From Candidatus Moraniibacteriota bacterium (GTDB taxonomy: Bacteria; Patescibacteriota; Minisyncoccia; Moranbacterales; GCA-2747515): 64,000 bases of DNA. A program made the translations under genes and the position numbers. The stretch covers positions 155,131-219,130 of the forward strand of contig CP065011.1 in NCBI GenBank assembly GCA_016699795.1, written 5' to 3'. Position 1 is the stretch's first letter. Each line of letters opens with the position of its first letter. Of the stretch, positions 7,361 to 64,000 are shown piece by piece. The notes beneath the pieces were generated by a model. That model was not told the origin of the DNA. It saw only the letters and a list, made by a program, of their open reading frames with translations, and ran no database searches.

Positions 7361-8128
7361 TTAATAATCTATAGTAGTCCAAGTGACTCTGTCACCAATT
7401 TTAATATAGAATTCTTTGTACCCCTCAGAGTACCGGACGGTACCCAATTCAGGTAAAGAATGGATGGAACTGCCCGCATAAAGGACCCAGTCTTTGTCGT
7501 CTTGTGTCATCATTCTGTTTGAGAATTTTGCTTCAAACTTCTCTTCGCTATTGATGAATATTTTAAATCTCTGACCTTCTTTAAATCTTGGTGTTTCACC
7601 CATCATCTTGAGAAGGCCAAAATTATCAATATGGACAATTGTTCCTGTGCTGATATCAAGGCTGATTAATTGCTCAGCATCAAATGGTTTACCGAAGCTA
7701 TTTAATGGTTCTCCTGCAACTAATTTCGCAACATTTGGTGCATGTACATATTTACCACCGAAAGAGACAAAACCTGGGTCATGTACTTCATACAATGTTT
7801 TGTATCCAAAATCTTTTAATACCCAACTTAATGCACCCGTGTTAGCGCTAAAAAACTTAATTCCATTATTAAGTTCTCCATATATTCGCGCTGAGCGATG
7901 TTTTTGAGGGTTAATTACCACTGAAAAAACAGTGTCTTCGAAGTAGTAATCAGCCATAAGCCTTGTCAAAAAAGCAGCATTTATAAGTGAGAATTCTGCA
8001 ACACACACAAGTTCAACCTCGACATCTTTAACTCCAAGTTTAAAACATTCGTTTAAAACAATTCGACGCATTTCATTAAAAGCAACATCTTTGCAGTCGG
8101 TGATAATTACTACATTTTTCTTATTCAT
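7361..8128 (-). CDS. DUF62 / SAM hydroxide adenosyltransferase-fluorinase-chlorinase family protein (paralog 1)
   Basis: 255 aa; N-terminal VVIITDCKDVAF (the TDFG-like nucleotide-pocket region) and HIDNFGLLK (IDxFGN motif) characteristic of PF01887 (5'-deoxyadenosyl transferase family: FlA, SalL, SAM hydrolase). About 50% identical to the ORF at 22883..23653. Confidence 0.7.
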   Translation of the reverse strand: MNKKNVVIITDCKDVAFNEMRRIVLNECFKLGVKDVEVELVCVAEFSLINAAFLTRLMADYYFEDTVFSVVINPQKHRSARIYGELNNGIKFFSANTGALSWVLKDFGYKTLYEVHDPGFVSFGGKYVHAPNVAKLVAGEPLNSFGKPFDAEQLISLDISTGTIVHIDNFGLLKMMGETPRFKEGQRFKIFINSEEKFEAKFSNRMMTQDDKDWVLYAGSSIHSLPELGTVRYSEGYKEFYIKIGDRVTWTTIDY

Positions 8129-10437: not shown

Positions 10438-11358
10438 TTATTCTTCATTTTTTTCTCCCGAAGGAAAATCTCCTCTTTTTTTACAAAGGCCATATCCAAT
10501 CATGCTGTAGCATAACTGAGCTGCGACATATTCAGTTCGGACATCATCTTCAAAAGGAGCTATCTCTACAATATCAGCCGATACAACTTCTTTTTTCAGA
10601 AATAAATGTTTTAAAAATTGAGAACAAAATTCCCATGTTAATCCCCCAGGAACGGGAGTTCCTGTGGCTGGCGCAACCGCCGGATCTAATCCATCAATAT
10701 CTAATGTGAGATACACTTTTTCTGTAGGGATAGCATTTACAATATCTTCAACGGAATAATTCATTCCTGTCCCCCACTCAAAAATCAAAGATTTAGATTC
10801 TCTTGCAAAAAGTATTTCGCTCTTTGCATACGTTCGGATCCCTATTTGCACGGTTGGAAAACCCAATTCCACACCCCTTCTCATAACACAAGCGTGTGAA
10901 AATCTCCCAGGATTTACCTCATTAAAAGAAGAATCATCATCATACATATCCAAATGTGCATCGATTTGAACCAAAGATATTTCATTACTTTCTTTGAAAA
11001 AATCAGCTAGCCCTTGGAAAACTCCTATAGAAATAGAATGTTCCCCTCCCAATGTAATGATAAACTTTCCAGAGGAGAAGTGATGAAGCCATCGCTCACG
11101 AACAGTCTGGATCATTTTTTCAGGAAGTTCCGAATGAATAGAAAGAAGAGAATCATCATGAAAAATCGAAAATTCTTTGGCTGTTTCCAGAAGAAGAAAA
11201 CGATCAAATAATTCCACTTTTTCTTCTAAGCAATGAACGATTTTCATGGGTCCTTTATCTTGTCCTTTTCGAAAAGAAGAAGAATAGTCATAAGGAACAC
11301 TTAAAACAACAGCATCACAAGATTTTTCATCAATGACATCCAAAATAGATTCTACCAT
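10438..11358 (-). CDS. speB: agmatinase/arginase-family ureohydrolase
   Basis: 306 aa; Mn-binding motifs GGEHSIS, DAHLDMYDD, LTLDIDGLDP, TPVPGGLT. Confidence 0.8.
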   Translation of the reverse strand: MVESILDVIDEKSCDAVVLSVPYDYSSSFRKGQDKGPMKIVHCLEEKVELFDRFLLLETAKEFSIFHDDSLLSIHSELPEKMIQTVRERWLHHFSSGKFIITLGGEHSISIGVFQGLADFFKESNEISLVQIDAHLDMYDDDSSFNEVNPGRFSHACVMRRGVELGFPTVQIGIRTYAKSEILFARESKSLIFEWGTGMNYSVEDIVNAIPTEKVYLTLDIDGLDPAVAPATGTPVPGGLTWEFCSQFLKHLFLKKEVVSADIVEIAPFEDDVRTEYVAAQLCYSMIGYGLCKKRGDFPSGEKNEE

Positions 11359-11368
11359 AAAAAATCAT

Positions 11369-12424
11369 TTACTCTTTGTCATTATTTATAAATATTTTTC
11401 CCAATTCTTTCTTCTCTCTTTTTTTCCAATCTCCCTGATGATACACATAACTTATCATAAGAGGAAGAACGGATGTTGCTTCAGCATACACCATTTGTGT
11501 ATTTTCAATGGTAACCTTCCCCCACGAATGAGCTTCTTTTAGCGTCGAGCTTGAACAAGCTCCATCTCGAACATCCGCAACTGTTATCTGCACTGCGTAT
11601 TTATGCATCGGGGTATTTTTTTTACCCAACATTTCAGCACACACAACAGTGTCTTGAGTGAAATTTTTGGGAACACCGCCTCCTATCATAAAAACACCTG
11701 TTTGTTTTGCCTGCATTTTTATCTCGGTAAGTTCTCTAAAATCAGCAACGGAATCGATTGAAATATGAATATTTGGCTTTTCAACTTGATTCATAACTAA
11801 GCCAAAACCAGCACTACTGTCGGAAAAAGCAGGGCAAAATATCGGCACATTATTTTCATAAGCAACCTGAACTAAAGAATCTTTTTTCTTGGCCTTCTTA
11901 GGATTTTCAGAGAGAAACTTTCCCATATGATAAATAAATTCTCTCGAAGAATAAGGTCGAGGCTCAAGAGAATCCGCTATTTCTTTGATAGCGTTGTCGC
12001 ACATTTGTAGTTCATTTTCATTTATATACGTATCATATATTCTATCGATATAAAGCGATCGTAATTTGCGGTCATCTGAATCTACTGATCCCTGATAATG
12101 CTTTGCGCCAAGAGCTTCGAAAAAATCCATATCTACTATCGTTGCTCCTGTTGCAACAACAACATCGATCATGTTTGTCTTTATCATGTCTACATAGATT
12201 TGCATACATCCAGCAGCACTTGTACTTCCTGCTATAGTAAGGATATTCACACATTTTTTTTCTTTTATCATGGCAGATAATATATCCGTAGCATGAGCAA
12301 CTTCTCTTGCCGAAAAAGACATTCCTCGCATGGAATCAATAATGTATTGTGAATCAAACTTCTTAATATCGATATGCTGAACAACGTTTGAAAGTAATTC
12401 TTTCTTTTCCTGTGATTTCTTCAT
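11369..12424 (-). CDS. deoxyhypusine synthase-like protein (bacterial DHS homologues are often homospermidine synthases)
   Basis: 351 aa; DHS family features IFCPAFSDSSAGFG, MIGGGVPKNF (cf. GGGxxKH), NAD-binding Gly-rich region TIAGSTSAAG. Confidence 0.75.
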   Translation of the reverse strand: MKKSQEKKELLSNVVQHIDIKKFDSQYIIDSMRGMSFSAREVAHATDILSAMIKEKKCVNILTIAGSTSAAGCMQIYVDMIKTNMIDVVVATGATIVDMDFFEALGAKHYQGSVDSDDRKLRSLYIDRIYDTYINENELQMCDNAIKEIADSLEPRPYSSREFIYHMGKFLSENPKKAKKKDSLVQVAYENNVPIFCPAFSDSSAGFGLVMNQVEKPNIHISIDSVADFRELTEIKMQAKQTGVFMIGGGVPKNFTQDTVVCAEMLGKKNTPMHKYAVQITVADVRDGACSSSTLKEAHSWGKVTIENTQMVYAEATSVLPLMISYVYHQGDWKKREKKELGKIFINNDKE

Positions 12425-12433
12425 ATTTTTGAT

Positions 12434-12871
12434 CTATAATAAATTTTGACTTGGGTATCGAGTTCCTCTTTTAACAAAATTAATTTCCGTTTCTTTCAAT
12501 TGAAATATTTCAGTAATGTGAGAGATGATCAGGTCTGTTTCCATATCATTTTTGCAAGTATAGACATCCGCACTCAAAAATCCTCTTCCAGGAAATGTGT
12601 GTATACTTATATGACTTTCTTCGATCAAAACATATCCACTCCAACCTCCAGGATCCTTTGTATCATTTCCCTTTGCAAAAAAAACTTTCGTCTCCGTAAG
12701 TTTGTGCATTTCACATTTAACCACCAGATCATCTAGACATTTACGAACAGATTCTTCATCGTTTAATTTCTCAAAATTCCCACCATAACCGTCAATCATA
12801 AGATGCTCTCCGAAGTTTATTGTTTCCATATATTTTTCTAAATTATTAATAATTAACTCATCTAGGTTCAT
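12434..12871 (-). CDS. speH: S-adenosylmethionine decarboxylase proenzyme (pyruvoyl-dependent SpeH/class 1b)
   Basis: Start reassigned to the ATG at 12871 (MNLDELIINN...); the tracked ORF begins at an upstream TTG. LIEESHISIHTFPGRG carries the ESH self-cleavage serine motif. Forms an operon with the DHS-like and speB genes (9-10 nt gaps). Confidence 0.75.
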   Translation of the reverse strand: MNLDELIINNLEKYMETINFGEHLMIDGYGGNFEKLNDEESVRKCLDDLVVKCEMHKLTETKVFFAKGNDTKDPGGWSGYVLIEESHISIHTFPGRGFLSADVYTCKNDMETDLIISHITEIFQLKETEINFVKRGTRYPSQNLL

Positions 12872-12968
12872 TCCTAGGAAAATGCCCCAATAGTTTTGTG
12901 ATTTGCAGTAACGTATCAACTAAGTTATACCTCTATTGTAACACTTTTCTATATAAAGACAAAGGTGA
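12855..12968. repeat. copy 1 of a ~110-bp direct repeat (promoter + leader + first 5 codons of speH)
   Basis: About 93% identical to 23727..23838: aactcatctaggttcattcctaggaaaatgccccaatagttttgtgatttgcagtaacgtatcaactaagttatacctctattgtaacacttttctatataaagacaaaggtgaa. Confidence 0.85.
12935..12962 (-). promoter_or_regulatory. sigma70-like promoter for the speH operon inside repeat copy 1
   Basis: Minus strand reads TTGTCT-16nt-TACAAT, about 65 nt upstream of the speH ATG. Confidence 0.5.
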
Positions 12969-13196
12969 ATGTACGAGATGAGTACCTCTTGGACACTTTA
13001 CTATATTTTTTCGTAAACTCTATAGGTGTCATATAGTCAAGAAATTGAAAGATTTATAAAAAATTTCAAATATCGCCTTTTGATATATAATAGGATTAGA
13101 TAAATATTATCCTCACCTACTAAAATAGGAACTTATATATGGAGCCCTTATTAATAAATTATTATCTCCATTTTTGAGCAATAATATTTCAAATTT

Positions 13197-13763
13197 ATGA
13201 TAAAGAATCTTGATAAATCCATTATAATAACAGGCGCCTCGGTTAGTGGAAAAACGACGTTATGTCGTCGTCTCATGGTACATTTTAAGCTTCAGCCACT
13301 ACCTGTACACATGACCCGAGAATTGCGAAACGGCGAAATTGAAAATGTTGATTTGGTTTTTATTGTAGAAGATGAATTTAAAGCGCGTTTTCTAAATGGA
13401 GAATATTTGCAAGAGTCCCTTGAATCGGCATATTTTAGCGGAGCCTATTACGGTTGCCCCAAAGAATGGATTAACCATACTAGAAATGAAGATTATTGTT
13501 GCTTTGTATGTCCAACAGTCAAAATGGCGAAAGAGTTAAAAAAAACACTTGGACAGAAAATTTTTTGGATACATCTGACTACTAATAAAAAAGTTAGATT
13601 AGAGAGGTTAATGAAAAGAAATCCCGATATGAAAAAAGAAGATTTTGATGCAAGAATTGAAAAAGGAGATGCGATTGTTGATACAACAGGACACGATTTA
13701 ATCATAGATACCAGTTATCTTAATGCTTGGGAAATTTTTTTCAACGCATTAGCGAGACTATAA
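13197..13763 (+). CDS. guanylate kinase-like P-loop nucleotide kinase
   Basis: 188 aa; Walker A GASVSGKTTL; MTRELRNGEIENVDLVFIVEDEFKARFLNGEYLQ parallels Gmk TTRxPRxGExxGxDYxFxxxxxFxxxxxxxxFLE, with both substrate-binding Arg kept. Confidence 0.55.
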   Translation: MIKNLDKSIIITGASVSGKTTLCRRLMVHFKLQPLPVHMTRELRNGEIENVDLVFIVEDEFKARFLNGEYLQESLESAYFSGAYYGCPKEWINHTRNEDYCCFVCPTVKMAKELKKTLGQKIFWIHLTTNKKVRLERLMKRNPDMKKEDFDARIEKGDAIVDTTGHDLIIDTSYLNAWEIFFNALARL

Positions 13764-13766
13764 TAT

Positions 13767-15515
13767 ATGTGTGGAATTGTAGCCATTGCTGGAAAAATTA
13801 TAAACAAGAATCACTATGACACTGAAGCTATGCTTCAGAAATTAAAGCATCGCGGACCGGACGGGCAAGGAGAAATAACATTTCCCCATTGCTGGCTTGG
13901 ACATCGACGACTCGCTATCGTTGATTTAAAATTTGGCAATCAACCTATGGTTGATGATAAATTAGCTATAACTTTTAATGGCGAAATATACAACCATCGC
14001 GAATTACGTAATCAATTAGAAAAAGTAGGATATCATTTTCAAACTCAATCTGACACAGAGACAATTTTGAAAGCATATCGAATGTGGGGAAAAGATTGCC
14101 CAAAGTATCTAGATGGAATGTTTGCTTTCGCAATTTGGGATGATCAGCAAAACGAATTATTTATTGCCCGGGACAGATTGGGGAAAAAACCCCATTATTA
14201 TTTTTTTGATGGAGACACAACGTTTCTTGCTTCCGAAATAAAATCATTAGTTGCTTCGGGTACTTTGGTTCCGGAAATAGACTATAAGGCTATCGACAAT
14301 TTTCTAAGGGTGATGTATATTCCGCCATGGAAATCAGTATATAAAAATGTTCATCAAATTCCACCCGCACATTGTGGAGTCTACAAGGATGGGAAACTTT
14401 CACTCGACAAGTACTGGACACTTCCTTCTCGGAAAATCGATATTTCATACGAAGACGCCAAGGTTGAAGTTCGTAGACTTCTTCATGCTGCAATAAAAAA
14501 AAGAATATCCTCTTCCGATGTAGAATTAGGCTCATTTCTCTCCGGCGGACTAGATTCATCATTGGTCACGCTTATTACAGCTGGCGAGCTTAATCACCCG
14601 CTTAAAGTATTTTCTGTCAGTTATGATAATCATGATGAGCTCCCTTTTGCCAAGCAAGTATGCGAAAAAATAGGTGGTGAACATTTTACAACACGCATCG
14701 ATGGGTGCATAACGCAAGAATTGGATAAAATAATCTCCTATTTCGATGAACCGCACGCTGATACATCCGATTTTCCACAACATCTTGTTTCACAACTCGC
14801 GGCACAAAAAGTAAAAGTTGTATTATCCGGAGACGGAGCTGACGAATTATTTTTGGGATATAAGTGGCATCTCAAACATAAAAAACCCAATCAAAACCAT
14901 GGTTCATCAGATATTTTCCGTAATCGCCTTCAATCAATATGCGCATTTCCCTCTTCTGACAGATCACTACTTTGGAAATACCCGGATGCATTAAATGACG
15001 ATATTATCATAAAAGATGCTTATAAAAAAAATTTCACCTCTATTGATAATGTTACAACATTTGATTTAACCTCTCACTTGCCAGGTCAAATTCTCACAAA
15101 AGTGGATCGTGCCAGCATGATGCATGGGCTTGAAGTTCGCTCACCCTTTCTGGATATAGCGTTAATAGAATTTGTTTTTAGTCTACCTTATGAATATAAA
15201 GTTCGTAACGGTGAACAAAAATATATTCTCAAAGATATTCTTACCGAATATATGCCCATCGATTTTGTTTATCGCCGCAAACAAGGGTTTGGAGCTCCAA
15301 TAGAACGATGGTTAAATAACCCCACAATGAAAGAGTATGTATATTCGAAACTAGGTTCTGATGCAAAAATAAGATCCATTTTTTCAGAAAAAATCCTTGA
15401 TAACTATCTGCATGATTTCTATATTAATGAACATAAGCACGAGCGTTCCGCACAGCGACTTTGGGTACTTCTATCCTTAGAACGCTGGATGACACAATTA
15501 AGTTTAACCTTATGA
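13767..15515 (+). CDS. asnB: asparagine synthase (glutamine-hydrolysing) family amidotransferase
   Basis: 582 aa; N-terminal nucleophile MCGIVAIAG, HRGPD, class-II GATase domain; PP-loop SGGLDSS in the synthetase domain. Only 3 nt after the kinase stop. Confidence 0.85.
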   Translation: MCGIVAIAGKIINKNHYDTEAMLQKLKHRGPDGQGEITFPHCWLGHRRLAIVDLKFGNQPMVDDKLAITFNGEIYNHRELRNQLEKVGYHFQTQSDTETILKAYRMWGKDCPKYLDGMFAFAIWDDQQNELFIARDRLGKKPHYYFFDGDTTFLASEIKSLVASGTLVPEIDYKAIDNFLRVMYIPPWKSVYKNVHQIPPAHCGVYKDGKLSLDKYWTLPSRKIDISYEDAKVEVRRLLHAAIKKRISSSDVELGSFLSGGLDSSLVTLITAGELNHPLKVFSVSYDNHDELPFAKQVCEKIGGEHFTTRIDGCITQELDKIISYFDEPHADTSDFPQHLVSQLAAQKVKVVLSGDGADELFLGYKWHLKHKKPNQNHGSSDIFRNRLQSICAFPSSDRSLLWKYPDALNDDIIIKDAYKKNFTSIDNVTTFDLTSHLPGQILTKVDRASMMHGLEVRSPFLDIALIEFVFSLPYEYKVRNGEQKYILKDILTEYMPIDFVYRRKQGFGAPIERWLNNPTMKEYVYSKLGSDAKIRSIFSEKILDNYLHDFYINEHKHERSAQRLWVLLSLERWMTQLSLTL

Positions 15516-17203
15516 ACAATAATAAAAAATCTTCGGCTTTGCTTGATAGTCTCCATACTGACTTTAAAAAAATATATACAACTATGTCAGAAAAAAACTG
15601 GCATGAGCAAATTACTTTTTATCTAAATAAAATAGGATTTTTTTCTGGTAGCCCTGCTAAAGAAAGAATGGTTACCGGCTGGATTGCCGGGCTTTGTGAG
15701 CGTGCATACTATGTTGCGGCGCATAGAAAACCAATAAATATTCGTTCAAACTTTAGCCGTCAACTCAAAAAAATAATAAGCTCCACATCCTTACCTGAGT
15801 TTCTTAGTTGTCCCGGACAAGTCATTTGCGGTAAACGTCAACCCTCATTCATCGAAGGCATTATTCCGACACTTGAACGTCTTCAAGTCATGGAACGCTT
15901 ACCAGAAGTGTTTGGTGCCGGTATAGATTCTATTATTATCGGCGGATCAATGAGTTATATCCCCTTCTTCGGCATACGCGAAAATAAAAAAACTAAGGAT
16001 TTTTCCGATATTGATACGCTTATCGTTATTAATAATAAGTTCTTTAAAAAGGCTTCCTGGAAAAAATTTATAAATGACAAGCTATTTCCCGTTAAAGAGA
16101 AAGAAAAATTTCTTGATCGAATAAAGGTTTTCCAAAAACTCAACCGCAACAATATTGCTGACGTATTCAGCCAAAAATTTTCTATTGTTGGGAAGTCTTT
16201 TATCGTAAGCAATCACTTTGTTACTCGTTCAGTATTCGAAAAAATGGTTTATACTGACTTAAAAAAATCTCTTCAAACAAGAAAGGATATGCAGTACATT
16301 ATGCGCGATTTTCGAATAGATCCCTTTAGGCACCCTTGCCATGCGCGTCATACTTTTGACGGCCAACGTTTTGAATCAGTAATTGCTGGACAGGAATTAG
16401 AATCAGGCGGATTTATTTCTAATATGCCAGGCTATATTATTTCTAATGAAAAGCTTTATCCTGGTGTCTATCAAACTGTAATTTCTCCCGCATTTTTAGT
16501 GTTTTATGATCGCATAGGAGAAACGACAAAATTGGTTAAAGAATTTGAAAATATTATTTACAGAGAGGTTAAATATATACGAAAAAAAACACCGTCAGCA
16601 ACATATGCTAAAGCACATAACCGTTATGATATTTTCCCTCTCGGCAGATATGATGACGGGCATAATTCTTACATTTCACCAAAGGAAATTAAAAAATATA
16701 TACCACCCCCCAACTTTAATATTATTGGAATCAAATCGGTTATCTCACCAGAAGAAGTTATAGCCGATAAAATTAAAGATTCAAAAGAAAATCAGCTCGT
16801 TCGTTATAAAGCAAGACGCTTTCTAGAAAACTGGAAAAGGAAAATGTTAAGAAATGCCGAAATGGAAATTGATAAATTCATTAATCAAGAGAGCCTTAAA
16901 TCACTAATGCTATCATCTAAAGAGCAAGGAAAACAATGGGCTACAGTAGCTGCCATCCCCTACGGCAAACAGATAATCGAAAAAATTCCGCATCCATATA
17001 AAAAATCAGATTCAAAAAACTTAATTGTGCGCGAAGAATTATTTACCCAAATCATAACGCCTGGTGATATTATGCGTTTAACTACATATGAAAAATTAGC
17101 ACAAATATCTGGAAAAGTTTATGTAGCAAGTATTATGGATTCAAAAGAAAAACGCAAAAATTTACCACTAAGCTATGAAGTAGTGATACCGATACCAACA
17201 TAA
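15512..17203 (+). CDS. large nucleotidyltransferase-domain protein (GlnE/GlnD/Pol-beta-like NTase signature), function unknown
   Basis: Start reassigned to the ATG at 15512, which overlaps the asnB stop (ATGA). IIIGGSMSYIPFFGIRE...KDFSDIDTLIVINN matches the hG[GS]...[DE]h[DE]h NTase motif (cf. GlnD vGGYGRgEL..SDIDLLI). About 560 aa; the rest is unassigned. Confidence 0.5.
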   Translation: MNNNKKSSALLDSLHTDFKKIYTTMSEKNWHEQITFYLNKIGFFSGSPAKERMVTGWIAGLCERAYYVAAHRKPINIRSNFSRQLKKIISSTSLPEFLSCPGQVICGKRQPSFIEGIIPTLERLQVMERLPEVFGAGIDSIIIGGSMSYIPFFGIRENKKTKDFSDIDTLIVINNKFFKKASWKKFINDKLFPVKEKEKFLDRIKVFQKLNRNNIADVFSQKFSIVGKSFIVSNHFVTRSVFEKMVYTDLKKSLQTRKDMQYIMRDFRIDPFRHPCHARHTFDGQRFESVIAGQELESGGFISNMPGYIISNEKLYPGVYQTVISPAFLVFYDRIGETTKLVKEFENIIYREVKYIRKKTPSATYAKAHNRYDIFPLGRYDDGHNSYISPKEIKKYIPPPNFNIIGIKSVISPEEVIADKIKDSKENQLVRYKARRFLENWKRKMLRNAEMEIDKFINQESLKSLMLSSKEQGKQWATVAAIPYGKQIIEKIPHPYKKSDSKNLIVREELFTQIITPGDIMRLTTYEKLAQISGKVYVASIMDSKEKRKNLPLSYEVVIPIPT

Positions 17204-17207
17204 CATC

Positions 17208-20114
17208 CTACCGCTTAAGCGTTATTATAATTTTCTTGTCTTCAATTGAGAATTCTTTTTTGATATCATTTTCTGAAAGCAAGTTTGATTGGATATTATT
17301 TGCCAAAACTTCTTTTTGAATCATTTCTCCAAACTTATTGAAAATTTCTTCCATTCCATCATATCCGACTCGAATACGATTATCAACTTCATATCCCGCT
17401 TCTTTGCGCATTTCTTGAATAACTCTAATTATCTCGCGAGCATTGCCTTCCATTTTCAACTCCTCAGTAATTTCAATATTTAGTTCAACCTTATTTTCTG
17501 GTCCACTTTTAATAACAACATTTTTGACATTAACCTCTTCTTTCATAATTTCTATAAAATCTTCCTGCATTTCATAGTTCGTAATTATCAATTCGGAAAG
17601 TGGTTGTCGGACCTTGATTCCATTTTTTGCACGCAATTGCAAAGCCTCCGTAATGATTTTTCTGGTATTATCCATTTTTTCATTTAACTCCGCGTCAATC
17701 AATTTTTCATCAGCCACAGGGAAGTCAACCAAATGTACAGATTCTTCATTTGCTAAGTTCTTATAAATTTCTTCTGCAATAAATGGAGTAAATGGTGACA
17801 TAACCTTTGATAATTCCACCAAAACATAGTGCAATGTTTGGTAAGCAGCTTCTTTATCACCATCATCCTCAGATTTCCAAAATCTCTTTCGGCTGCGGCG
17901 AATATACCAGTTAGATAATTCATCAATAAAATCCATGACTGGTTTCGTAGCATTTGGCAAATCATAAGCCAACATGTTTTCGTCAGCTGTTTTAATAAGT
18001 TTATGCAACTTTGATACAATCCATTTATCCAGCAAGCTTATTGTTTGAGGTCTCTCGCCTAAATTTTGAGGAGACCATTTATCTACATTGGCGTACATGA
18101 CGAAAAAACCATAACTGTTCCACAAGGTGCCCAATTTTCTTTGAATATCAGAAACATCCTTATCAATTAAGGCAAAATCGTCACCATTGAGCAGTGGTGA
18201 ACTTATCAAGAGGTATCTCAAGGCATCGGCACTATATTTCTCAAGCAAAACATTCGGATCCGTATAATTACCTAAAGATTTTGACATCTTTTTACCATCC
18301 GAACCCGCAATCGTACCAGTTACAATGACATTTTTAAAAGATTCCTTTCCAAAAAGACCCACTGATACGGCATGTAGGTAATAGAACCACGCACGAACTT
18401 GACCAACATATTCAGAAATAAAATCTCCCGGAAAATTTTCTTCAAACTTCTCCCTATTCTCAAACGGATAATGAAATTGAGCAAATGGCATTGACCCCGA
18501 TTCAAACCAGCAGTCCATAACTTTTTCAATTCTTCTCATCCCAATACCATCTATTTCAAAAGTTATTTTGTCGACATAAGGCAAATGGTAATCTCCAAGT
18601 TCTACGCCCGAAAGTTCCTTTAATTCTGCATAACTACCCACGACTTTTGTTACTACTGTTCCGTCAGATTGTGTTCCGCGCCAAACCGGAATAGGCGTAG
18701 CCCAAAATCGATCACGACTTAAGTTCCAATCGGGAGCAGTTTCCACAGTATTCCTAAACCGCTTTTCCTTAAAATGATCCGGGAACCAGTTGATATTCTC
18801 ATTTTCTTCCAACATCTCTTTTCTTTGCCCGTCAATATCCATAAACCAGCTTGGATGAGCTCGGTACATCAACTTCGTACCACACCTATGGCAATGTGGG
18901 TATTCATGCTGGACATAGTCAATTTTTAATACAACATCATCCACCAAAAAAGTTTTGGCTATTTCTTTATTTACTTCCCAAACATTTTTATCCTTCCATC
19001 TTCCATCGACATAGATTCCGTTTTCATCAACCGTATTTACGACTGGCAGTTTCTCTTTTTTAGCAACCACATAGTCATCTTCTCCGAAAGCCGGAGCGAT
19101 ATGCACAATACCTGTTCCATCTTCTGTTGTCACAAAATCCGCACCAATGATTCTGTGCGCTTTATCCCCATGATTTTTAAAAAGAGGCTTATACTTTTTA
19201 TTGACTAATTCCGCACCACTAATTTCTCCGACTATCTTCGGTGGAGTAGGCGGAACATCCAAGGAATTCAATTCTTTAACGGCAACAAATAAAACTTCCT
19301 TCTTATTTTCATAAGTTTCTTTTGCTAAAATAAAAATTTCTTCCTCCCCTTTTTTGTTATTATATCTAACTTTTACATAGTCAATTTTTTCACCTATTGC
19401 TAAGGCTACATTGGCCGATAATGTCCAAGGTGTCGTTGTCCAGGCTAATAAATATGTATTTTCTTCGCCTTCAAGTTGAAATTTCACATAAACCGATGGA
19501 TCAGTTACCACCTTATAGCTATTATCCATAGCTACTTCAGCTTTTGAAATCGGAGTCGCACACCGCGTGCAATACATTAGAACCTTTTCACCTTCATATA
19601 TTTTTCCTTTTTCATACAATTGCTTAAATGCCCACCAAACACTTTCCATGTATTCTTTATCCATGGTCTTGTATGCATTTTTAAATTCTACCCAGCGGCC
19701 GATTCTCTCAATTGTATCTTCCCAAACACTACCACCTTGAACCATTTCTCTATGACAAGTTTGAATATATTTTTCTAATCCAATTTTTGGAATGTCACGT
19801 TTATCTTTAATGCCTAGTTTTTTTTCTACCAAATTTTCCGCAGGTAGACCATGACAATCCCAACCCCAACGCCTTTCTACTCGCTTACCTTTCATAGTCC
19901 AGTACCGTGGCACTACATCTTTCACGATCGAAGAAAGTAATGTCCCATAATGAGGAATTCCTGTTATGAAAGGAGGTCCGTCATAGAAAACATACGCATC
20001 TTTTTTATCTCTCATCTCCACAGACTTTTTAAAAGTATCATTTTCCTTCCAAAACTTAATCATCTCCTGTTCCATTTCTGAATATTTTTTTCTTAATTCT
20101 ACCTTTTTAAACAT
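17208..20114 (-). CDS. ileS: isoleucyl-tRNA synthetase, eukaryote-like type 2
   Basis: 968 aa; YDGPPFITGIPHYGTLL (type-2 HYGH-class HIGH region); GWDCHGLP; KMSKS (KKMSKSLGN); CP1 editing domain present. Confidence 0.9.
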   Translation of the reverse strand: MFKKVELRKKYSEMEQEMIKFWKENDTFKKSVEMRDKKDAYVFYDGPPFITGIPHYGTLLSSIVKDVVPRYWTMKGKRVERRWGWDCHGLPAENLVEKKLGIKDKRDIPKIGLEKYIQTCHREMVQGGSVWEDTIERIGRWVEFKNAYKTMDKEYMESVWWAFKQLYEKGKIYEGEKVLMYCTRCATPISKAEVAMDNSYKVVTDPSVYVKFQLEGEENTYLLAWTTTPWTLSANVALAIGEKIDYVKVRYNNKKGEEEIFILAKETYENKKEVLFVAVKELNSLDVPPTPPKIVGEISGAELVNKKYKPLFKNHGDKAHRIIGADFVTTEDGTGIVHIAPAFGEDDYVVAKKEKLPVVNTVDENGIYVDGRWKDKNVWEVNKEIAKTFLVDDVVLKIDYVQHEYPHCHRCGTKLMYRAHPSWFMDIDGQRKEMLEENENINWFPDHFKEKRFRNTVETAPDWNLSRDRFWATPIPVWRGTQSDGTVVTKVVGSYAELKELSGVELGDYHLPYVDKITFEIDGIGMRRIEKVMDCWFESGSMPFAQFHYPFENREKFEENFPGDFISEYVGQVRAWFYYLHAVSVGLFGKESFKNVIVTGTIAGSDGKKMSKSLGNYTDPNVLLEKYSADALRYLLISSPLLNGDDFALIDKDVSDIQRKLGTLWNSYGFFVMYANVDKWSPQNLGERPQTISLLDKWIVSKLHKLIKTADENMLAYDLPNATKPVMDFIDELSNWYIRRSRKRFWKSEDDGDKEAAYQTLHYVLVELSKVMSPFTPFIAEEIYKNLANEESVHLVDFPVADEKLIDAELNEKMDNTRKIITEALQLRAKNGIKVRQPLSELIITNYEMQEDFIEIMKEEVNVKNVVIKSGPENKVELNIEITEELKMEGNAREIIRVIQEMRKEAGYEVDNRIRVGYDGMEEIFNKFGEMIQKEVLANNIQSNLLSENDIKKEFSIEDKKIIITLKR

Positions 20115-20379
20115 AAAATTATCATTTTATAATATTTAACTAACATAAAAATAAAAATCCCTACACAAATAATGTATAAGGACGATTGAAAATCGTGGTA
20201 CCACCTTAATTCCCCCAATATTTATATGGAGCTTGATTATGGCTATTACGGGCCACCCGGTGGATTCTACTTGCCTAATAGGCTTTCTTTTCACAGCATT
20301 GGGATTGATAGTCCCTCAAGCGCTTTATATATATAATACTTCTTTTTAAATATTAGGCAAATTACCAATCTTCTTAACT

Positions 20380-20815
20380 ATTTTATCAAGACTCTCAAAT
20401 AATGATTTCCTTTGACGGATCTACCGTTAAATCTGGATGTTTTGGAATTTCGTAATGCATATCCTTACCAATTTTTTCACTTCGTATATAAATCCAAAAG
20501 AGATTAATCAGTTTTGTAATCATATCCCGTATTGATTAAAAAGGTGCTATAACAGGAACGACCCTATTAAAACCTTGGCTATTAAGAACTTTTGTCAATC
20601 GCGCAACTCGCATATTGTGTTCCTTTCTATCTTCATTGCTAAATCCTAGATCTATTTAAATTGATACACGCGATTCATCTCCATCAAGAACTACAGCACT
20701 TAGTCGATCCTTTAGCAAATATGCGAGCAAGGTCTTACCTGAATTAACATTCCCAGTTTACTATATAATTCTTTTTTTGCTGTCTCATATCTTGGTTACT
20801 GAGATTTCTTCAATT
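20380..20815 (-). pseudogene. cysC: adenylylsulfate (APS) kinase pseudogene
   Basis: Minus-strand frame: AGGAGG-6nt-ATG MEKQIEEISVTKI*DSKKRII**TGNVNSGKTLLAYLLKDRLSAVVLDGDESRVSI*IDLGFSNEDRKEHNMRVARLTKVLN, then a frameshift and ..SQGFNRVVPVIAPF*. This matches CysC (..TGLSGSGKSTLA..[34 protein letters not shown]..FISP) but carries in-frame TGA, TAG and TAA codons plus at least one frameshift. Confidence 0.6.
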
Positions 20816-21137
20816 TGCTTTTCCATTCTAATCCTCCTGATTCCCCAGCCAGCATCACGACTATAAAAAACTTCTTTATATCAGGAATAGCTACTAAACA
20901 TTTTCATCACCCTCATACTCCTTTCTAATCCTCGCCATTCATTCTTCAACCAGATAAAGATAGATAAAATCTTAGAGTATCTCTAGCAGCGATGACGACG
21001 CTGCCACATTCATTTAGAACAACATTAATGGGAGCATTATGACCTCTGTGAAACGGTTGCTAACGACCTATACATAATGATTTACTCATGCATTTATGAA
21101 TACGCTGAATTCATCCTTAATTAATTTAACGGTTTTA

Positions 21138-21905
21138 TCAGTACTTTAAAATCTGATTTATCTTATTCGCTTTAGTTTTTGAGTTTATTTCATCCAAGAA
21201 AAGAGTAAATGATTCTCTTCGTGGAAGTAACCCTATCTCTCCCCTTTCTATTCCACGAGAATGACCAGGCAAATCAATATCACCTGTCACATTTTTAAAA
21301 TCAGCGTAATTCAGGAAAAGATCGCTATAATTGATTCCAATGTGACCACAAATTTTTTTCATTTCTTGAATGGGATTATTACAGAAATTTTCATACTTAA
21401 ATATCATCACTTCCTTTCCTACTAAGCTTGTTGTTAGCTCATATAAAAAATCAAGATTTTTATCATAAAATGTTCTTGGAGAAGCATTAAGAGAAAGCCA
21501 AACATCAATAGCGTTTCTAACAAAAGCAATCGGTATAACCGGAAAAAATTTGAATAGCGCATCAAGCGTAGCCAATGATTTAGATGGTTTAAAATTATTA
21601 TATCGGGATGGTACGAAACTTCCGAATGTCCAATCGCGAACTACTAGAGTTAAATTTTTAGAAATACAATATTCATATATTTCAGTTATGTTTTCAATAA
21701 ATCCTTCCGACTTCAATTCCAAACCGTACCATTCTTTAGATTGCTCTTTAATCGTGCTACAAGAACTAGGGCACAAAGCTTCAATACTTACCTCAGATAA
21801 AACAAAAGTATTGGGAATACTAGCAATGCATCTATTAAGCAAAGTCCCTCCGGACCGTGCATAAGCCATCATCACCACAATCGGTTTAGAATATTTATTT
21901 ATCAT
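21138..21905 (-). CDS. PAPS-dependent sulfotransferase family protein
   Basis: 255 aa; 5'-PSB-like motif ARSGGTLL near the N-terminus and 3'-PB-like RNAIDVWLS (RxxxDxxxS). Confidence 0.6.
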   Translation of the reverse strand: MINKYSKPIVVMMAYARSGGTLLNRCIASIPNTFVLSEVSIEALCPSSCSTIKEQSKEWYGLELKSEGFIENITEIYEYCISKNLTLVVRDWTFGSFVPSRYNNFKPSKSLATLDALFKFFPVIPIAFVRNAIDVWLSLNASPRTFYDKNLDFLYELTTSLVGKEVMIFKYENFCNNPIQEMKKICGHIGINYSDLFLNYADFKNVTGDIDLPGHSRGIERGEIGLLPRRESFTLFLDEINSKTKANKINQILKY

Positions 21906-21916
21906 CGTTTCTTTCG

Positions 21917-22876
21917 TTAGTTTTTAACTAAAGCTTCATCATATTTCTTTGATATAATTTCAACTTGTTTCTTCAAGTCTGTTATCGTTCCCTTCGCGGG
22001 AGATAATGAATAGGATGGCGTGAAAATATAATTATTATTATTGCCACCAACCCAGTATCTTCCATCCAGTAATATTTGTTCAGAAGTATTTGTCAAATTA
22101 TTTTTAAAAGTTTCGTCTACGGGAGCAATCCTAAAAAAGAAATCTTTATCCAAATCATAAATAATCCCATATCTATTTTTTATTTTTGTCTCATCATAAG
22201 CAATTTTATTTAATTTAATCCAATCGGCTAATATTTTTTTGATTAATTCAACACTAACATGAGGAGAATCATCAAGCCTCAATTCTTCTATTAGCTTTAA
22301 ATTTATCTTATTTTTATAGCAAAAATCAAATAAGCTAGGTAATGACGATATATTTATTTCAGTTACCGGAGTATTGAACTCTATTCTGCCCCCCCTTGAT
22401 TTGATGAATAATGCTGAATCCAAAGTATTTTTTAGACCATCTTTATCAAATCTCGCTCTTGTCGTTTTTTCATATATGTCCTTATCTAAAGATGGCAAAT
22501 GTATATGAACATCAGATAATCCATTTTTCAATAAATCATCAGCTAACTCAAGAGTCATTCTGGAACCATTAGTAGTCATCCCAACATCTTTCACATACTG
22601 ATTCAATATGCTAAATATTTCCACCAGGTCTTTTCTTAACGTTGGTTCACCACCCGTTATCTGGATGTGAAGATTTTTCTCATTAATAATATTTTTTAGT
22701 TCACTAACAAATTCCCGGACTTGCTCTAATGGAATAAATCCATATCCTCGCGTATACTTTCCATCTACGAATGGTCCGCAATATATACAATTTTGATTAC
22801 ATGCTCCCGTTACCGATAATCTTATTTCATAAAATGGCATAGAAACATGAAAATCTTTTGTATTCTCTAATAGCAT
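21917..22876 (-). CDS. radical SAM protein, MoaA/viperin-like class, lacking the MoaA C-terminal auxiliary-cluster cysteines
   Basis: 319 aa; IRLSVTGACNQNCIYCGP (CxxxCxxC); ITGGEPTLRKDL; MTTNGS. MoaA-like TIM-barrel region present; no C-terminal CxxC...C motif. Confidence 0.8.
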   Translation of the reverse strand: MLLENTKDFHVSMPFYEIRLSVTGACNQNCIYCGPFVDGKYTRGYGFIPLEQVREFVSELKNIINEKNLHIQITGGEPTLRKDLVEIFSILNQYVKDVGMTTNGSRMTLELADDLLKNGLSDVHIHLPSLDKDIYEKTTRARFDKDGLKNTLDSALFIKSRGGRIEFNTPVTEINISSLPSLFDFCYKNKINLKLIEELRLDDSPHVSVELIKKILADWIKLNKIAYDETKIKNRYGIIYDLDKDFFFRIAPVDETFKNNLTNTSEQILLDGRYWVGGNNNNYIFTPSYSLSPAKGTITDLKKQVEIISKKYDEALVKN

Positions 22877-22882
22877 AAATAT

Positions 22883-23653
22883 TTATATTTTTTCCCAAGT
22901 TATTACATCTCCGACTCGAATGTTAAGTTCTCTTGCACTATCCGTGCATCTGACTTTTCCTAGTTCAGGTAACCCCATGGAACTTCCGGGATAAAGTACC
23001 CAAGTTCCGGTATCATGATCCATCATTCGCGCTGAAGTTATGACCTCAATAGATTCATTTCCATTTACAAATATCCTCACTTTTGTTCCTTCTGGATAAT
23101 CAGGGAATTGATCTTTTATTTTCATTAACCCAAAATTATCAATATGAACGACGACACCTTTTTTAACAGAAAAGTCGCACAATTCGTCTTTACTTAGTTC
23201 CTTTCCATATTCTTCAAATGAAATCCTTGATGCTATTTTGGCAACCATTGGAGAATGAACATACTTGCCTCCGAACGGATAAAATTTACTTTCTTTTATT
23301 TCATATAGAGATTTTATACCAAAATCATCAAATAACCAATTCAATGTTCCAGTATCCGCACCTTCAAAATATATACCATTCGCAAGTTCGCCAAAAATTC
23401 TTTTTGGTCTCTGTTGGGATGGGTTAAGAATTAACATAAAAATAACGTCCTCCTTATAATGTTCTGCCATCAGTCGTGTAAGAAATGCTCCATTCGTTAT
23501 GGAAAATTCCTCGGCGGGAATAAGAGGCTCAATCTCTGTATAGCTATTGCCCAACTTTTCACACTCAGATAATATTTGTCTTCTAATTTCACAAAATGCA
23601 ACATCTTTGCAATCTGTAATGACTACAACATGTTTAACTGGTTTTTTCTTGTT
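22883..23653 (-). CDS. DUF62 / SAM hydroxide adenosyltransferase-fluorinase-chlorinase family protein (paralog 2)
   Basis: Likely start is the GTG at 23653 (VNKKKPVKHVVVITDCKDVAF aligns with the paralog-1 N-terminus MNKKNVVIITDCKDVAF); the tracked ORF starts 54 nt upstream. HIDNFGLMK motif present. 6-nt gap to the radical SAM gene. Confidence 0.7.
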   Translation of the reverse strand, partial: NKKKPVKHVVVITDCKDVAFCEIRRQILSECEKLGNSYTEIEPLIPAEEFSITNGAFLTRLMAEHYKEDVIFMLILNPSQQRPKRIFGELANGIYFEGADTGTLNWLFDDFGIKSLYEIKESKFYPFGGKYVHSPMVAKIASRISFEEYGKELSKDELCDFSVKKGVVVHIDNFGLMKIKDQFPDYPEGTKVRIFVNGNESIEVITSARMMDHDTGTWVLYPGSSMGLPELGKVRCTDSARELNIRVGDVITWEKI

Positions 23654-23726
23654 CACACTTAATGTTAAAATTAGGTAATTAAAGCACGCTAAGAATATTA
23701 GTATCACGCAATCTGGCTATTATATA

Positions 23727-23838
23727 ACTCATCTAGGGTTATTCCTAGGAAAATGCCCCAATAGTTTTGTGATTTACAGTAACGTATTAACTAAGTTATA
23801 CCTCTATTGTAATACTTTTCTATAAAAGACAAAAGTGA
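23727..23838. repeat. copy 2 of the ~110-bp direct repeat, immediately upstream of the DUF62-2 operon
   Basis: aactcatctagggttattcctaggaaaatgccccaatagttttgtgatttacagtaacgtattaactaagttatacctctattgtaatacttttctataaaagacaaaagtgaa. The speH ATG is degenerate here (ATA); promoter-like TTGTCT-15nt-TACAAT retained on the minus strand. Confidence 0.85.
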
Positions 23839-23903
23839 AAAATCCACAAAAAAGACCGATTTTCTTCAATCGGTCTCAAGAAAATCTAATTTCTCGTCTA
23901 GAG

Positions 23904-24761
23904 TTATTCGCAATATTCATTCATATTGGAATAATCAACTTCACTCCCCCGCAGAGGAAGACGTTTGAAAAGATTTTTATTCTTCAGAGGAGAATTATTT
24001 ACCTCAAAAAACTTTTGAATATCACCTATTCCCACGAAATCAAAAAAATCTTGATAATAACCTTGAGAAAAAGGATATTCGCTAAAGTTTGTTTTTGCTA
24101 TTTTGTTCATAATTCGAACATTTTTAGCATAAACCTCTTTGAAAGATCTCATCGAAAGAAAGGGATAGAGCTTCTGCGCATCTTCAAAAGGTAACTCTCG
24201 TTCTTGATAAAGCCTCCATTGATACGTACTCGCCACAATCTGAGGATAAAATCCATTATATTTCGTTATATCTTTGGCATACCCCACGGATTTGAGGAGT
24301 CTAAATTCAAAATCCCCACAATACAAACCCTGCGTTAGCAAAGAAGCATTTTCCAAGTATGTGAGAATGAGAACAGGATTCACCACAAAACCCAGTTCCG
24401 AAGAACTATTTTCTCTCACCGAATAATAAACAATTTCGGCAGGAGTTAAATTATGACTCGCATTTCCTCCTTGCAGTTGAGGTGTTTGTATCGCGCCAGG
24501 GCCATCTTGCCAGCTCGGCCTACTCCAAGTATTACAAGGATCCGCGCTTCGTAGTATTCGAGACCAGCATGTTCTCTGTGCATAGCACCAAAGATTAGTA
24601 TCTTTCATTTCTTGATACAAAGAGATCTCTTCGTTTTCATTTTCCGCTTGTAAGGAAAACGCCATCAAGAAAAGAAATAACGCCAAAACAAGAAGTGTGT
24701 ATTTTTTCACCAACTTTTCCTCTTTATGATTTGACAAAGTACCACCGATGTTCCAGCTCAA
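23904..24761 (-). CDS. hypothetical secreted protein
   Basis: 285 aa; hydrophobic signal-like segment LLVLALFLFLMAFSLQA followed by an acidic stretch; no motif recognised. Confidence 0.4.
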   Translation of the reverse strand: MSWNIGGTLSNHKEEKLVKKYTLLVLALFLFLMAFSLQAENENEEISLYQEMKDTNLWCYAQRTCWSRILRSADPCNTWSRPSWQDGPGAIQTPQLQGGNASHNLTPAEIVYYSVRENSSSELGFVVNPVLILTYLENASLLTQGLYCGDFEFRLLKSVGYAKDITKYNGFYPQIVASTYQWRLYQERELPFEDAQKLYPFLSMRSFKEVYAKNVRIMNKIAKTNFSEYPFSQGYYQDFFDFVGIGDIQKFFEVNNSPLKNKNLFKRLPLRGSEVDYSNMNEYCE

Positions 24762-35263: not shown

Positions 35264-35316
35264 AAGTCTTTTCTCTCTATAAAAACAAAAAACTCCCCTT
35301 TCTTCTATCATTTTTG

Positions 35317-35389
35317 AGCCACCTGTCGGACTCGGACCGACGACCCACGGTTTACAAAACCGTTGCTCTACCAACTGAGCTAAGGTGGC
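35317..35389 (-). tRNA. tRNA-Thr (anticodon UGU)
   Basis: Minus strand: GCCACCT TA GCTC AGTTGGT AGAGC A ACGGT TTTGTAA ACCGT GGGTC GTCGG TCCGAGT CCGAC AGGTGGC T. Confidence 0.8.
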
Positions 35390-61386: not shown

Positions 61387-61522
61387 GCGTATAACGTATC
61401 CAAATATCTGAAGTTTGCTGGAGTGAAACGAAAGCAAATTTGGGTCGAAAAAGTTTTGCGCTCCTTAATTTAAAATCTAATAAGGCAAAACTTTTGAGCC
61501 AGATATTTAGTGTTGTACGATG
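61387..61522. repeat. palindromic element family member c
   Basis: CGTATAACGTATCC..ATATCTGAAGTT..GCAAATTTGGGTCGAAAAAGTTTTGCGCTCCTT...AAGGCAAAACTTTTGAGCCAGATATTTAGTGTTGTACG. Confidence 0.7.
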
Positions 61523-63092: not shown

Positions 63093-63228
63093 CTAACGTT
63101 AAGAATATCTGAAGTTCATTGTAGCATAGCGGAAATGAATTTGGGCCGAAAAAGTTTTGCTTTCCTTTATTCAAGTATCTAATAGGCAAAACTTTTGAGC
63201 CAGATATTCTTTGTTAAGTGATGTAATA
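63093..63228. repeat. palindromic element family member f
   Basis: CTAACGTTAAGAATATCTGAAGTT...GAATTTGGGCCGAAAAAGTTTTGCTTTCCTT...AGGCAAAACTTTTGAGCCAGATATTCTTTGTTAAGTG. Confidence 0.7.
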
Positions 63229-63267
63229 AAAATTTTTCTTCCTTTTTGCATTTTAAACAGGACAATT

Positions 63268-63939
63268 TTATGATTCCAATTTCAGAGGGTTGAAGTTAGT
63301 TTCATAATCGTAATAATCTTCATTTTCAGCTTTCTTCAATTTCTCCACAACTTTGTAAGTAACGGGAGTCATAATAACTTCAACTACAACTTTCAGAAGC
63401 CAGCCAGACAATATCGAAGCCACAAGCAGGTTGGTCGGAATCACAGCATAAAGCGCAATCACATAAAATAAAATTGTGTTCACTCCTTCTCCGACAACAG
63501 TTGAGCCAATAGTCCTAGTCCATAAATATTTTCCTTTCGTCCATATTTTCATTTTTGCCAAAACATAGTCATTTAAAATTCCACCAGCCCAGACCGCGAT
63601 CCAGCCACCAAACAAAATTCGAGGCACTTGTCCCAAAACACGAACATACGCACTGTTTGCATCAAATCCAGCGGCGGGCGGAAGTAAAACCACAATAGAA
63701 TAAATCACACCAGCCAATACAGAGGCAAGCAAAACCATCCACACAACACTTCTTGCTTTGGCATAACCATAAACTTCCGTTAGCACGTCAGCAAAAATGT
63801 AAGTGAAAGGAAAATATAAAACTGTTGCGGATACTGTAAAAATTCCAAGTTGAACAATTTTGCCAGCCGTAATATCAGAAACAAGCTGAAAAGTAATATA
63901 CAATGCTGTAATTAGCCCAAGGTATTTGTATTGCTTCAT
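63268..63939 (-). CDS. yhhQ: queuosine-precursor transporter (YhhQ/DUF165 family)
   Basis: 223 aa; YFPFTYIFADVLTEVYGY motif; 6 TM. Confidence 0.65.
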   Translation of the reverse strand: MKQYKYLGLITALYITFQLVSDITAGKIVQLGIFTVSATVLYFPFTYIFADVLTEVYGYAKARSVVWMVLLASVLAGVIYSIVVLLPPAAGFDANSAYVRVLGQVPRILFGGWIAVWAGGILNDYVLAKMKIWTKGKYLWTRTIGSTVVGEGVNTILFYVIALYAVIPTNLLVASILSGWLLKVVVEVIMTPVTYKVVEKLKKAENEDYYDYETNFNPLKLES

Positions 63940-63985
63940 AAAATTGTCCTGTTTAAAATTCTTAATTAAAAAATTTTTATTATTT

Positions 63986-64000
63986 CACTTAACGTTTCGG
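63986..64000. repeat. start of another palindromic element (truncated by the window end)
   Basis: TATTTCACTTAACGTTTCGG matches the 5' ends of the elements at 30080 and 63093. Confidence 0.4.

Follow-up and report, generated by a model that had tools for sequence, protein, structure and literature searches.

We analysed a 64,000-nt stretch of the genome of a Candidatus Moraniibacteriota bacterium (GenBank assembly GCA_016699795.1, contig CP065011.1, positions 155,131 to 219,130 of the forward strand), which we refer to as the window and in whose coordinates all positions are given. Within this window a repeat of 116 nt occurs in front of two different operons, and it is this repeat that is considered here. 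Copy 1 (12854-12969, minus strand), delimited by blastn and alignment, comprises a promoter-like site and the first ~75 nt of the 5' leader of the speH operon. Copy 2 (23725-23839, minus strand), delimited by blastn, alignment and a repeat search, and reproduced in part by the independent contig L001 described below, stands at the head of an operon for DUF62-2, a radical SAM (S-adenosylmethionine) protein and a sulfotransferase-like protein. The two copies are 10.9 kb apart, both lie on the minus strand, and each of them heads an operon.

The speH operon consists of the SAM decarboxylase gene speH (12434..12829, minus strand, counted from its probable start ATG 12829, as judged from homologues and TIGR03330), a deoxyhypusine-synthase-family gene (11369-12424) and an agmatinase-family gene (10438-11358), the latter two also on the minus strand and assigned by domain searches. 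The second operon spans 21138..23656 on the same strand and was likewise delineated by domain searches: DUF62-2 (SAM_HAT_N; GTG 23656 to 22883) is followed after 6 nt by the radical SAM gene (22876-21917) and after a further 11 nt by the sulfotransferase-like gene (21905-21138). Orthologues of DUF62-2 have an ATG at the codon of GTG 23656, and the GenBank call of 257 amino acids (aa) agrees with this start. The first genes after the copies are thus unrelated to each other (AdoMet_dc after copy 1, SAM_HAT_N after copy 2), and so are the upstream neighbours. Copy 1 is situated in a divergent intergenic region between speH and a guanylate-kinase-like gene that starts at 13197 on the plus strand, and copy 2 follows an unrelated gene for a 285-aa hypothetical protein (23904-24761). 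Domain and profile searches confirmed all gene identities proposed in an earlier first-pass annotation of this DNA (AdoMet_dc, DS, Arginase, guanylate-kinase-like, AsnB, IleS, APS-kinase pseudogene, sulfotransferase-like, radical SAM and SAM_HAT_N), and its statement that both operons use SAM holds in that each opens with a SAM-using enzyme.

A blastn comparison of the window with itself aligned 12854-12969 to 23725-23839 with 94.0% identity over 116 columns (E 1.3e-43; E 4e-46 with a shorter query), so that the previously reported extents of 12855-12968 and 23727-23838 at ~93% identity were correct to within 1-2 nt. The copies are identical at 109 of the 116 positions and differ by six substitutions and a single 1-nt gap, a deletion, which makes seven differences in total. 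This is the top-scoring repeat of the 64-kb window in the blastn self-comparison, and a repeat-family search, in which it appears as family D1, concurs. Neither blastn nor a covariance model of the transcribed part detected a third copy in the window. At either edge of both copies the sequence identity ends abruptly and the flanks are unrelated; on its 5' side the repeat begins 7 nt before the -35 hexamer, and on its 3' side it ends within the leader. A decayed 5' fragment of speH was sought downstream of copy 2, and no significant similarity was found past GAGTTA.

The repeat carries a promoter-like site in both copies, although in different states of preservation. In copy 1 a consensus scan identified TTGTCT, a 16-nt spacer and TGtTACAAT, which corresponds to an extended -10 element (12935..12962, minus strand). 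The TTGTCT-16-TACAAT promoter proposed earlier on this strand was hence recovered, with the addition of the TG before the -10 hexamer. Alignment places the corresponding site of copy 2 at 23806..23832 (minus strand), where both hexamers are kept (23832-23827 and 23811-23806), but the spacer is 1 nt shorter (15 nt) and TA stands in place of the TG (TAtTACAAT). Because of these two changes the consensus scan no longer reports the site. The earlier view that copy 2 retains the promoter therefore stands for the hexamers and not for the spacing or the TG. In the window as a whole the motif TGNTAYAAT has 13 matches against 6.9 expected, a number reached by 1 of 100 shuffled sequences, and several of the matches sit upstream of genes in the correct orientation.

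The surroundings of copy 2 indicate that the operon behind it needs a promoter of its own. A terminator scan identified an intrinsic terminator of the upstream gene 23904-24761 at 23852..23877 (minus strand), composed of a 10-bp stem and a T-run, and its stem ends ~12 nt before copy 2. Since this terminator precedes the repeat, the promoter of the downstream operon has to lie within 23657-23851. That interval holds copy 2 together with a unique 68-nt spacer (23657..23724, minus strand), delimited from the sequence and the orthologue starts, which separates the repeat from DUF62-2 and is close in length to the distance of about 75 nt given before. Exactly at the junction of copy 2 and this spacer there is a perfect TATAAT (23724-23719, minus strand), which is a possible alternative promoter for DUF62-2.

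The differences between the copies are biased. At five of the six substituted positions copy 1 carries a G or C where copy 2 has an A or T, the changes include the TG of the extended -10 element, and the indel alters the -35/-10 spacing. Given this G/C to A/T bias and the promoter-affecting changes in a genome with 34% GC, we infer that the original, constrained sequence is copy 1 and that copy 2 is drifting away from it.

Whether the repeat contains coding sequence depends on the start of speH. The GenBank product (QQS61466.1, 145 aa) begins at ATG 12871, inside the repeat. The protein matches AdoMet_dc, and TIGR03330 scores above its cutoff with an alignment that starts at residue 6 of the 131-aa form. 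Of the 120 homologues listed, hardly any reaches the length of the 145-aa query, of which they span only ~88-90%, and in an alignment of eleven homologues most begin with M-x-T-x-NFGEH, which corresponds to ATG 12829 (METINFGEH). The context of the two codons was also compared with that of other starts in the window. A Shine-Dalgarno-like motif was found at 11 of 65 open reading frame (ORF) starts, and starts typically follow A/T-rich runs (AAAAAT-ATG, for example), which suggests that the initiation of translation depends little on Shine-Dalgarno sequences in this genome. The context of 12829 (GAAAAATAT-ATG) fits this A/T-rich pattern better than that of 12871 (CCTAGGA-ATG). The true start of speH is therefore probably ATG 12829, which would make the GenBank product 14 codons too long, a probable mis-annotation that we flag here as a point of small practical value. 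As the probable start lies 25 nt past the repeat edge, the repeat is most probably wholly non-coding. What had been described as the first five codons of speH in copy 1 is then probably 5' untranslated region (5'UTR), as the homologue starts and TIGR03330 point to 12829. The base change from ATG (12871) to ATA in copy 2 is real, but in a non-coding repeat it does not amount to the loss of a start codon, and its reading as a degenerate start is probably incorrect. A conserved upstream ORF was considered as well and rejected: the ATG at 'CTAGATGAG' opens M-S-stop in copy 1 and a frame of 17 codons in copy 2, and is not conserved.

A repeat that joins two loci in this way might in principle arise from a chimeric or collapsed join during assembly, in which case the copies would not be arranged as shown. 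The sequence stems from a metagenome-assembled genome: proteins of the window have exact matches in a Candidatus Moraniibacteriota assembly of this kind with locus tags IPN70_008xx, tags that probably belong to the long-read activated-sludge set of BioProject PRJNA629478 (described in PMC9765116). Two of the four junctions between repeat and unique sequence (12969/12970 and 23839/23840), together with the connection from copy 1 to speH, fall outside the independent contigs that we retrieved. Against such an artefact, the seven differences between the copies mark two distinct loci, the source contig spans 1,186,598 bp, and an assembler capable of a megabase contig is not misled by a repeat as short as 116 nt. 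In addition, short-read contigs from the Logan collection (SRR11674012) match the window at 26117-23842 (99.8%), 23770-20519 (100%) and 12996-14237 (99.8%). The second of these, L001, is 100% identical to the window over the 3' 46 nt of copy 2 and across the boundary into DUF62-2, so that one other sample with this strain contains the junction of copy 2 and DUF62-2. L001 opens with 30 nt of a 35-mer that both copies share, followed by the copy-2-specific base 23740, and thus starts at the first 31-mer that is specific to copy 2. Logan assembly graphs use k=31. A contig that begins at this 31-mer shows the graph break that is expected when both copies are present in the reads. Because of the seven copy differences, the branch point of L001 and the independent contigs, we consider an artefact, which the first-pass annotation had named as one outcome that would overturn its interpretation, to be very unlikely. 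The practical lesson is that this 116-nt repeat fragments short-read assemblies.

To place the two copies in time we turned to related loci in other genomes. Orthologues of DUF62-2 (87% aa identity) were found in two contigs of the European Nucleotide Archive (ENA; L083 and L084), where they follow an ileS gene after 14 nt. The leader is absent there, and the homology to the window begins exactly at the DUF62-2 start codon. The leader at DUF62-2 is accordingly a derived feature of this lineage, as these orthologues follow ileS without it, and it was gained no earlier than the loss of the gene that used to lie upstream of the operon. The ileS gene of these contigs (L083 2-1513) is only 43% identical to the ileS of the window, which suggests a replacement or rearrangement of ileS in this lineage.

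On the side of copy 1, the closest speH loci (70% and 59% aa identity; L089-L092 and L088) have unrelated leaders of ~35 and ~85 nt behind a TGCTATAAT promoter, and their alignment to the window is limited to the coding start. A string shared with L089 (TAYAATAGAGG..TAT) was given no weight because of its brevity, and TAYAATAG shows no significant enrichment. A scan of a GTDB collection without the species of the window, made with the deoxyhypusine-synthase-like protein, gave a best match of 72%, and the speH neighbourhoods found in this way had neither upstream synteny nor the leader. For the gene 23904-24761, the closest relative beyond the same strain in Logan is 63% identical, and a longer contig with a 58% relative (L087) lacks synteny. 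A protein-guided search with DUF62-2 in JGI metagenomes gave no matches, and no encoding contigs are on record for speH, for the deoxyhypusine-synthase-like and agmatinase genes, or for the 285-aa form of the upstream gene.

We then considered whether the shared leader could be a cis-regulatory element, either a riboswitch-like RNA or the operator of a DNA-binding regulator, that subjects two SAM-consuming operons to joint control by SAM, one of its by-products or polyamines. Both operons are headed by SAM-using enzymes, the copies are 94% identical although their flanks are unrelated, and a three-stem fold can be drawn in which a closing stem (UAACUUA/UGAGUUA) links the predicted 5' end to the exact 3' edge of the repeat. 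The consensus fold of the two copies is, at -9 kcal/mol, a weak three-stem structure, and the coincidence of the closing stem with the 3' edge is one for which there are only two sequences to judge by. Folding was carried out on both strands and over several spans, and the minimum free energies of the transcribed leaders were no better than those of dinucleotide shuffles (z +0.12, +0.35, +0.87 and +1.29). For whole 116-nt units, which include the untranscribed promoter DNA, z-scores of -1.6 and -1.8 were obtained in two of four cases, and we do not regard these as meaningful. No compensatory change was seen among 17 predicted pairs, in a comparison of two near-identical copies that has almost no power to detect covariation. 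The perfectly identical core of 35 nt is at chance level for seven differences in 116 nt (P = 0.56).

Searches for a known or recurrent element were equally negative. Neither copy has a match in Rfam at E<=10 beyond noise, and at gathering threshold Rfam 15 detected only RNase P and tRNAs in the whole window, away from the copies. A covariance model of the leader, applied to the window and 20 related loci, including the regions upstream of ~12 related speH genes, matched the two copies only, and blastn likewise gave no match to the leader at the speH and DUF62 loci of relatives that were examined. An exact 22-mer of the conserved core had 0 matches in JGI metagenome contigs and 0 in IMG/VR. 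Neither a terminator nor a start-masking expression platform was found in the scanned region 12700-13250, the probable start at 12829 being outside the repeat.

The first-pass annotation had proposed that a hairpin in this leader sequesters the AUG. A hairpin with a 5-bp CUAGG/CCUAG stem is indeed predicted by folding at 12862..12878 (minus strand) and also in copy 2, with energies of -6.0 and -6.4 kcal/mol when folded alone and as a weak centroid in context. However, its 6-nt loop holds AUG 12871, which is consequently left unpaired, and the hairpin lies at least 33 nt from the probable start of speH.

Taken together, the idea of a small cis-regulatory RNA finds no backing in structure prediction, in RNA families or in homologues: z-scores are between +0.1 and +1.3, Rfam matches and compensatory changes are lacking, and the leader is absent from the related speH loci. 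In addition, the second DUF62 paralogue of the window (7361-8128) has no copy of the repeat. We therefore regard common control of the two operons through a shared element as improbable, given the missing family match, folding signal, recurrence and expression platform. A bolder variant, in which the 77-nt transcribed part is a lineage-specific SAM-coupled regulatory RNA or an operator with leader, representing an undescribed riboswitch-like class spread by duplication, seems more improbable still. Only a leader that responded to a ligand would give the repeat wider interest, and nothing here points there.

The stretch between the copies (12970..23724), as delineated by ORF and domain searches, has kinase-like, AsnB and unknown 580-aa genes on the plus strand, and ileS, a cysC pseudogene and the sulfotransferase-like, radical SAM and DUF62-2 genes on the minus strand. 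The ileS gene (17208-20114, minus strand) is bona fide, with 852 bits to TIGR00392 against a cutoff of 621. Its product is at the same time MupA-like, scoring 697 bits to the model of the mupirocin-resistant MupA, which is under that model's cutoff of 1900. Roughly 45 nt upstream of the ileS start there is a terminator-like hairpin with a T-run (20157-20183, minus strand), preceded by a promoter-like site (20333-20360, minus strand). This hairpin might terminate the DUF62-2 operon or attenuate ileS, and neither a T-box nor another Rfam family matched it. The cysC (APS kinase) pseudogene at 20398-20757 (minus strand) contains at least two in-frame stops, matches Pfam APS_kinase with E 1e-17 when its pieces are joined, and adjoins the intact sulfotransferase-like gene.

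That the copies might be direct repeats bounding an inserted or excisable segment had been the second option of the first-pass annotation, and for this we found no positive support. No integrase, recombinase or transposase was detected by Pfam, NCBIfam and PADLOC searches of the ORFs in the block or by a Pfam search of the broken region 20115-21137. The GC content is 0.32-0.38 inside the block and in the flanks alike, and no tRNA target adjoins the block (the nearest tRNAs are at 34.4-35.4 kb). The copies are 94% and not 100% identical. The ileS in the block is bona fide and probably the sole copy in the 1.19-Mb genome, and so the block would not be freely excisable.

A related alternative is that the repeat is a recombination scar. 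The block would have been inserted or rearranged between the gene 23904-24761 and speH through a crossover at a homologous leader of ~116 nt, either by Campbell-type integration of a circle or by duplication followed by deletion, so that the block ends up with a repeat on either side. Under this scenario copy 2 would be a leftover in decay, with no function, and the DUF62-2 operon would be started elsewhere, for instance at TATAAT 23724-23719. Without the block and one repeat, a colinear minus-strand order of gene, terminator, promoter/leader and speH would result, and this tidy arrangement keeps a history of insertion or recombination in play and speaks against simple copying of the module. 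The loss of promoter-relevant bases from copy 2 and the cysC pseudogene inside the block are in line with the same scenario. Moreover, the block is a mosaic, and relatives have some of its parts in different surroundings: the kinase (96% aa identity) and AsnB (71%) have methyltransferase and NIF3 genes as neighbours in GCA_964387895.1 (L082), and DUF62/radical SAM comes behind another ileS in L083 and L084. However, the homology between L082 and the window ends at 13044, 75 nt from the repeat, and not at the repeat itself. The absence of an integrase, transposase or other recombinase, the uniform GC content and the probable single copy of ileS are further points against a scar, and none of the relatives retrieved was close enough to reveal an empty site. 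We consider this history, the main rival of the reading preferred below, possible but rather doubtful.

With respect to the L082 homology, ~150 nt upstream of the guanylate-kinase-like gene (13044-13196) are conserved with L082 9845-10000 and have no Rfam match. This suggests that the kinase and its upstream segment are mosaic or were recently exchanged, possibly together with a conserved leader of their own.

Our preferred reading, to which we assign a probability of roughly 0.55, is that the repeat is a duplicated promoter/5'UTR module that serves as such at both loci. Copy 1 would be a working sigma-70-type promoter with an extended -10 element and the start of an untranslated leader of ~100 nt, and it would drive the polyamine operon of speH, the deoxyhypusine-synthase-like gene and the agmatinase gene. 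The 116-nt module would have been copied, presumably by illegitimate or short-homology recombination, to the head of the DUF62-2/radical SAM/sulfotransferase operon, immediately behind the terminator that ends the gene before it. At this place, copy 2 or the TATAAT at its 3' junction most likely provides the transcription start of the DUF62-2 operon, and we infer that copy 2 is transcriptionally active. In this respect the first option of the earlier annotation was partly right: the copying of a promoter and leader fits the orientation of the copies, their position at operon heads, the terminator and the leaderless relatives, while the cis-regulatory RNA that had been added to it is not supported. 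The repeat looks like plain promoter reuse, and not like a structured regulatory RNA or the ends of a mobile element.

Several considerations besides the colinear order after removal of the block lower our confidence in this duplicated module. The promoter of copy 2 looks weaker, with its 15-nt spacer and missing TG, and may be decaying rather than used. The assignment of copy 1 as the original follows from mutation-bias reasoning, the leader occurring in no outgroup. The family may also have more than two members, as our count covers 64 kb of a 1.19-Mb genome. If the reading is correct, the repeat adds one more case of promoter reuse, notable only for its occurrence in a streamlined 1.19-Mb Moraniibacteriota genome. 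It would also illustrate that an operon severed from its former upstream gene, which is ileS in the relatives, can regain a transcription start.

Some further observations on the window concern other repeats and the DUF62 paralogues. A 106-nt direct repeat of 81% identity is present at 61403-61507 and 63104-63208, an inverted repeat of ~60 nt (82%) at 63213-63273 and 63936-63993, and a 55-nt inverted repeat (89%) with arms ~280 nt apart at 30202-30255 and 30539-30592. Repeated segments at 34283-35196 (59 nt at 95%; 133 columns at 74%) lie within a cluster of four tRNA genes (34472-35389). The two DUF62 (SAM_HAT_N) paralogues, 7361-8128 and 22883-23656 (both minus strand), are 49% identical and 15 kb apart; the former, at which the repeat is missing, stands last in a row of genes that follows the speH operon.

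Among known systems, we compared the repeat with riboswitch regulons, islands, transposable elements and mobile promoters. As in a SAM-riboswitch regulon, one conserved 5' leader precedes two operons concerned with the same metabolite. Unlike in such regulons, the leader has no Rfam match, folding or covariation signal, expression platform or conservation in the genomes examined, and the repeat includes the promoter itself. The latter feature points to a duplication of DNA rather than to an RNA element that was retained independently at two loci. With att-bounded islands the repeat shares the arrangement of direct repeats that bracket a partly mosaic block of ~10.8 kb with a pseudogene. It differs from them in that the block lacks an integrase or recombinase, a tRNA target and a compositional deviation, in that the repeats are 116 nt long and 94% identical, and in that ileS lies inside. 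Insertion sequences (IS) and miniature inverted-repeat transposable elements (MITEs) with outward promoters, such as the Neisseria Correia element CREE and the Yersinia ERIC (cited in PMC3488235), likewise bring a promoter to neighbouring genes by way of repeated DNA. The present copies, in contrast, have no terminal inverted repeats or nearby transposase, and there are two of them in the 64-kb window.

The closest likeness is to the putative mobile promoters (PMPs), which are promoter regions present in duplicate before genes that are not homologous (Matus-Garcia, Nijveen & van Passel 2012, Nucleic Acids Res 40:10032, PMC3488235; Nijveen et al. 2012, PMC3575422). The survey of 1362 genomes considered sequences of 50-100 nt with at least 80% identity upstream of non-homologous genes, and obtained 4074 families, of which the 2771 two-member families were the commonest class, with a mean identity of 92% and a mean length of 66 nt (PMC3488235). 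Pairs within one species were ascribed to random duplication by homologous or non-homologous recombination, and in only 3% of the families were all members in the same COG (PMC3488235). The repeat described here extends over 116 columns with 94% identity, which is above the 80% of the survey, and its length exceeds the 50-100 nt considered there. Counted from ATG 12829, copy 1 occupies -26 to -141, or else it overlaps the start given by GenBank (12871), and it precedes the first gene of its operon. Counted from GTG 23656, copy 2 occupies -69 to -183, behind a terminator and ahead of the first gene of its operon, and is thus only partly inside the 150-nt range for PMP positions, which we counted as a qualifying location. 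The genes upstream and downstream of the copies are non-homologous, the repeat has no IS or riboswitch match, and its putative promoters are consensus matches. Apart from its length, the repeat differs from the catalogued families in that its two operons share a SAM theme, such functional sharing being rare in the survey, and perhaps also in its host, a bacterium of the candidate phyla radiation (CPR; Moraniibacteriota). The tests that we applied for a riboswitch and for an island were negative, and in its sequence features the repeat is of the PMP type. It is therefore best read as a two-member family of the kind catalogued in 2012.

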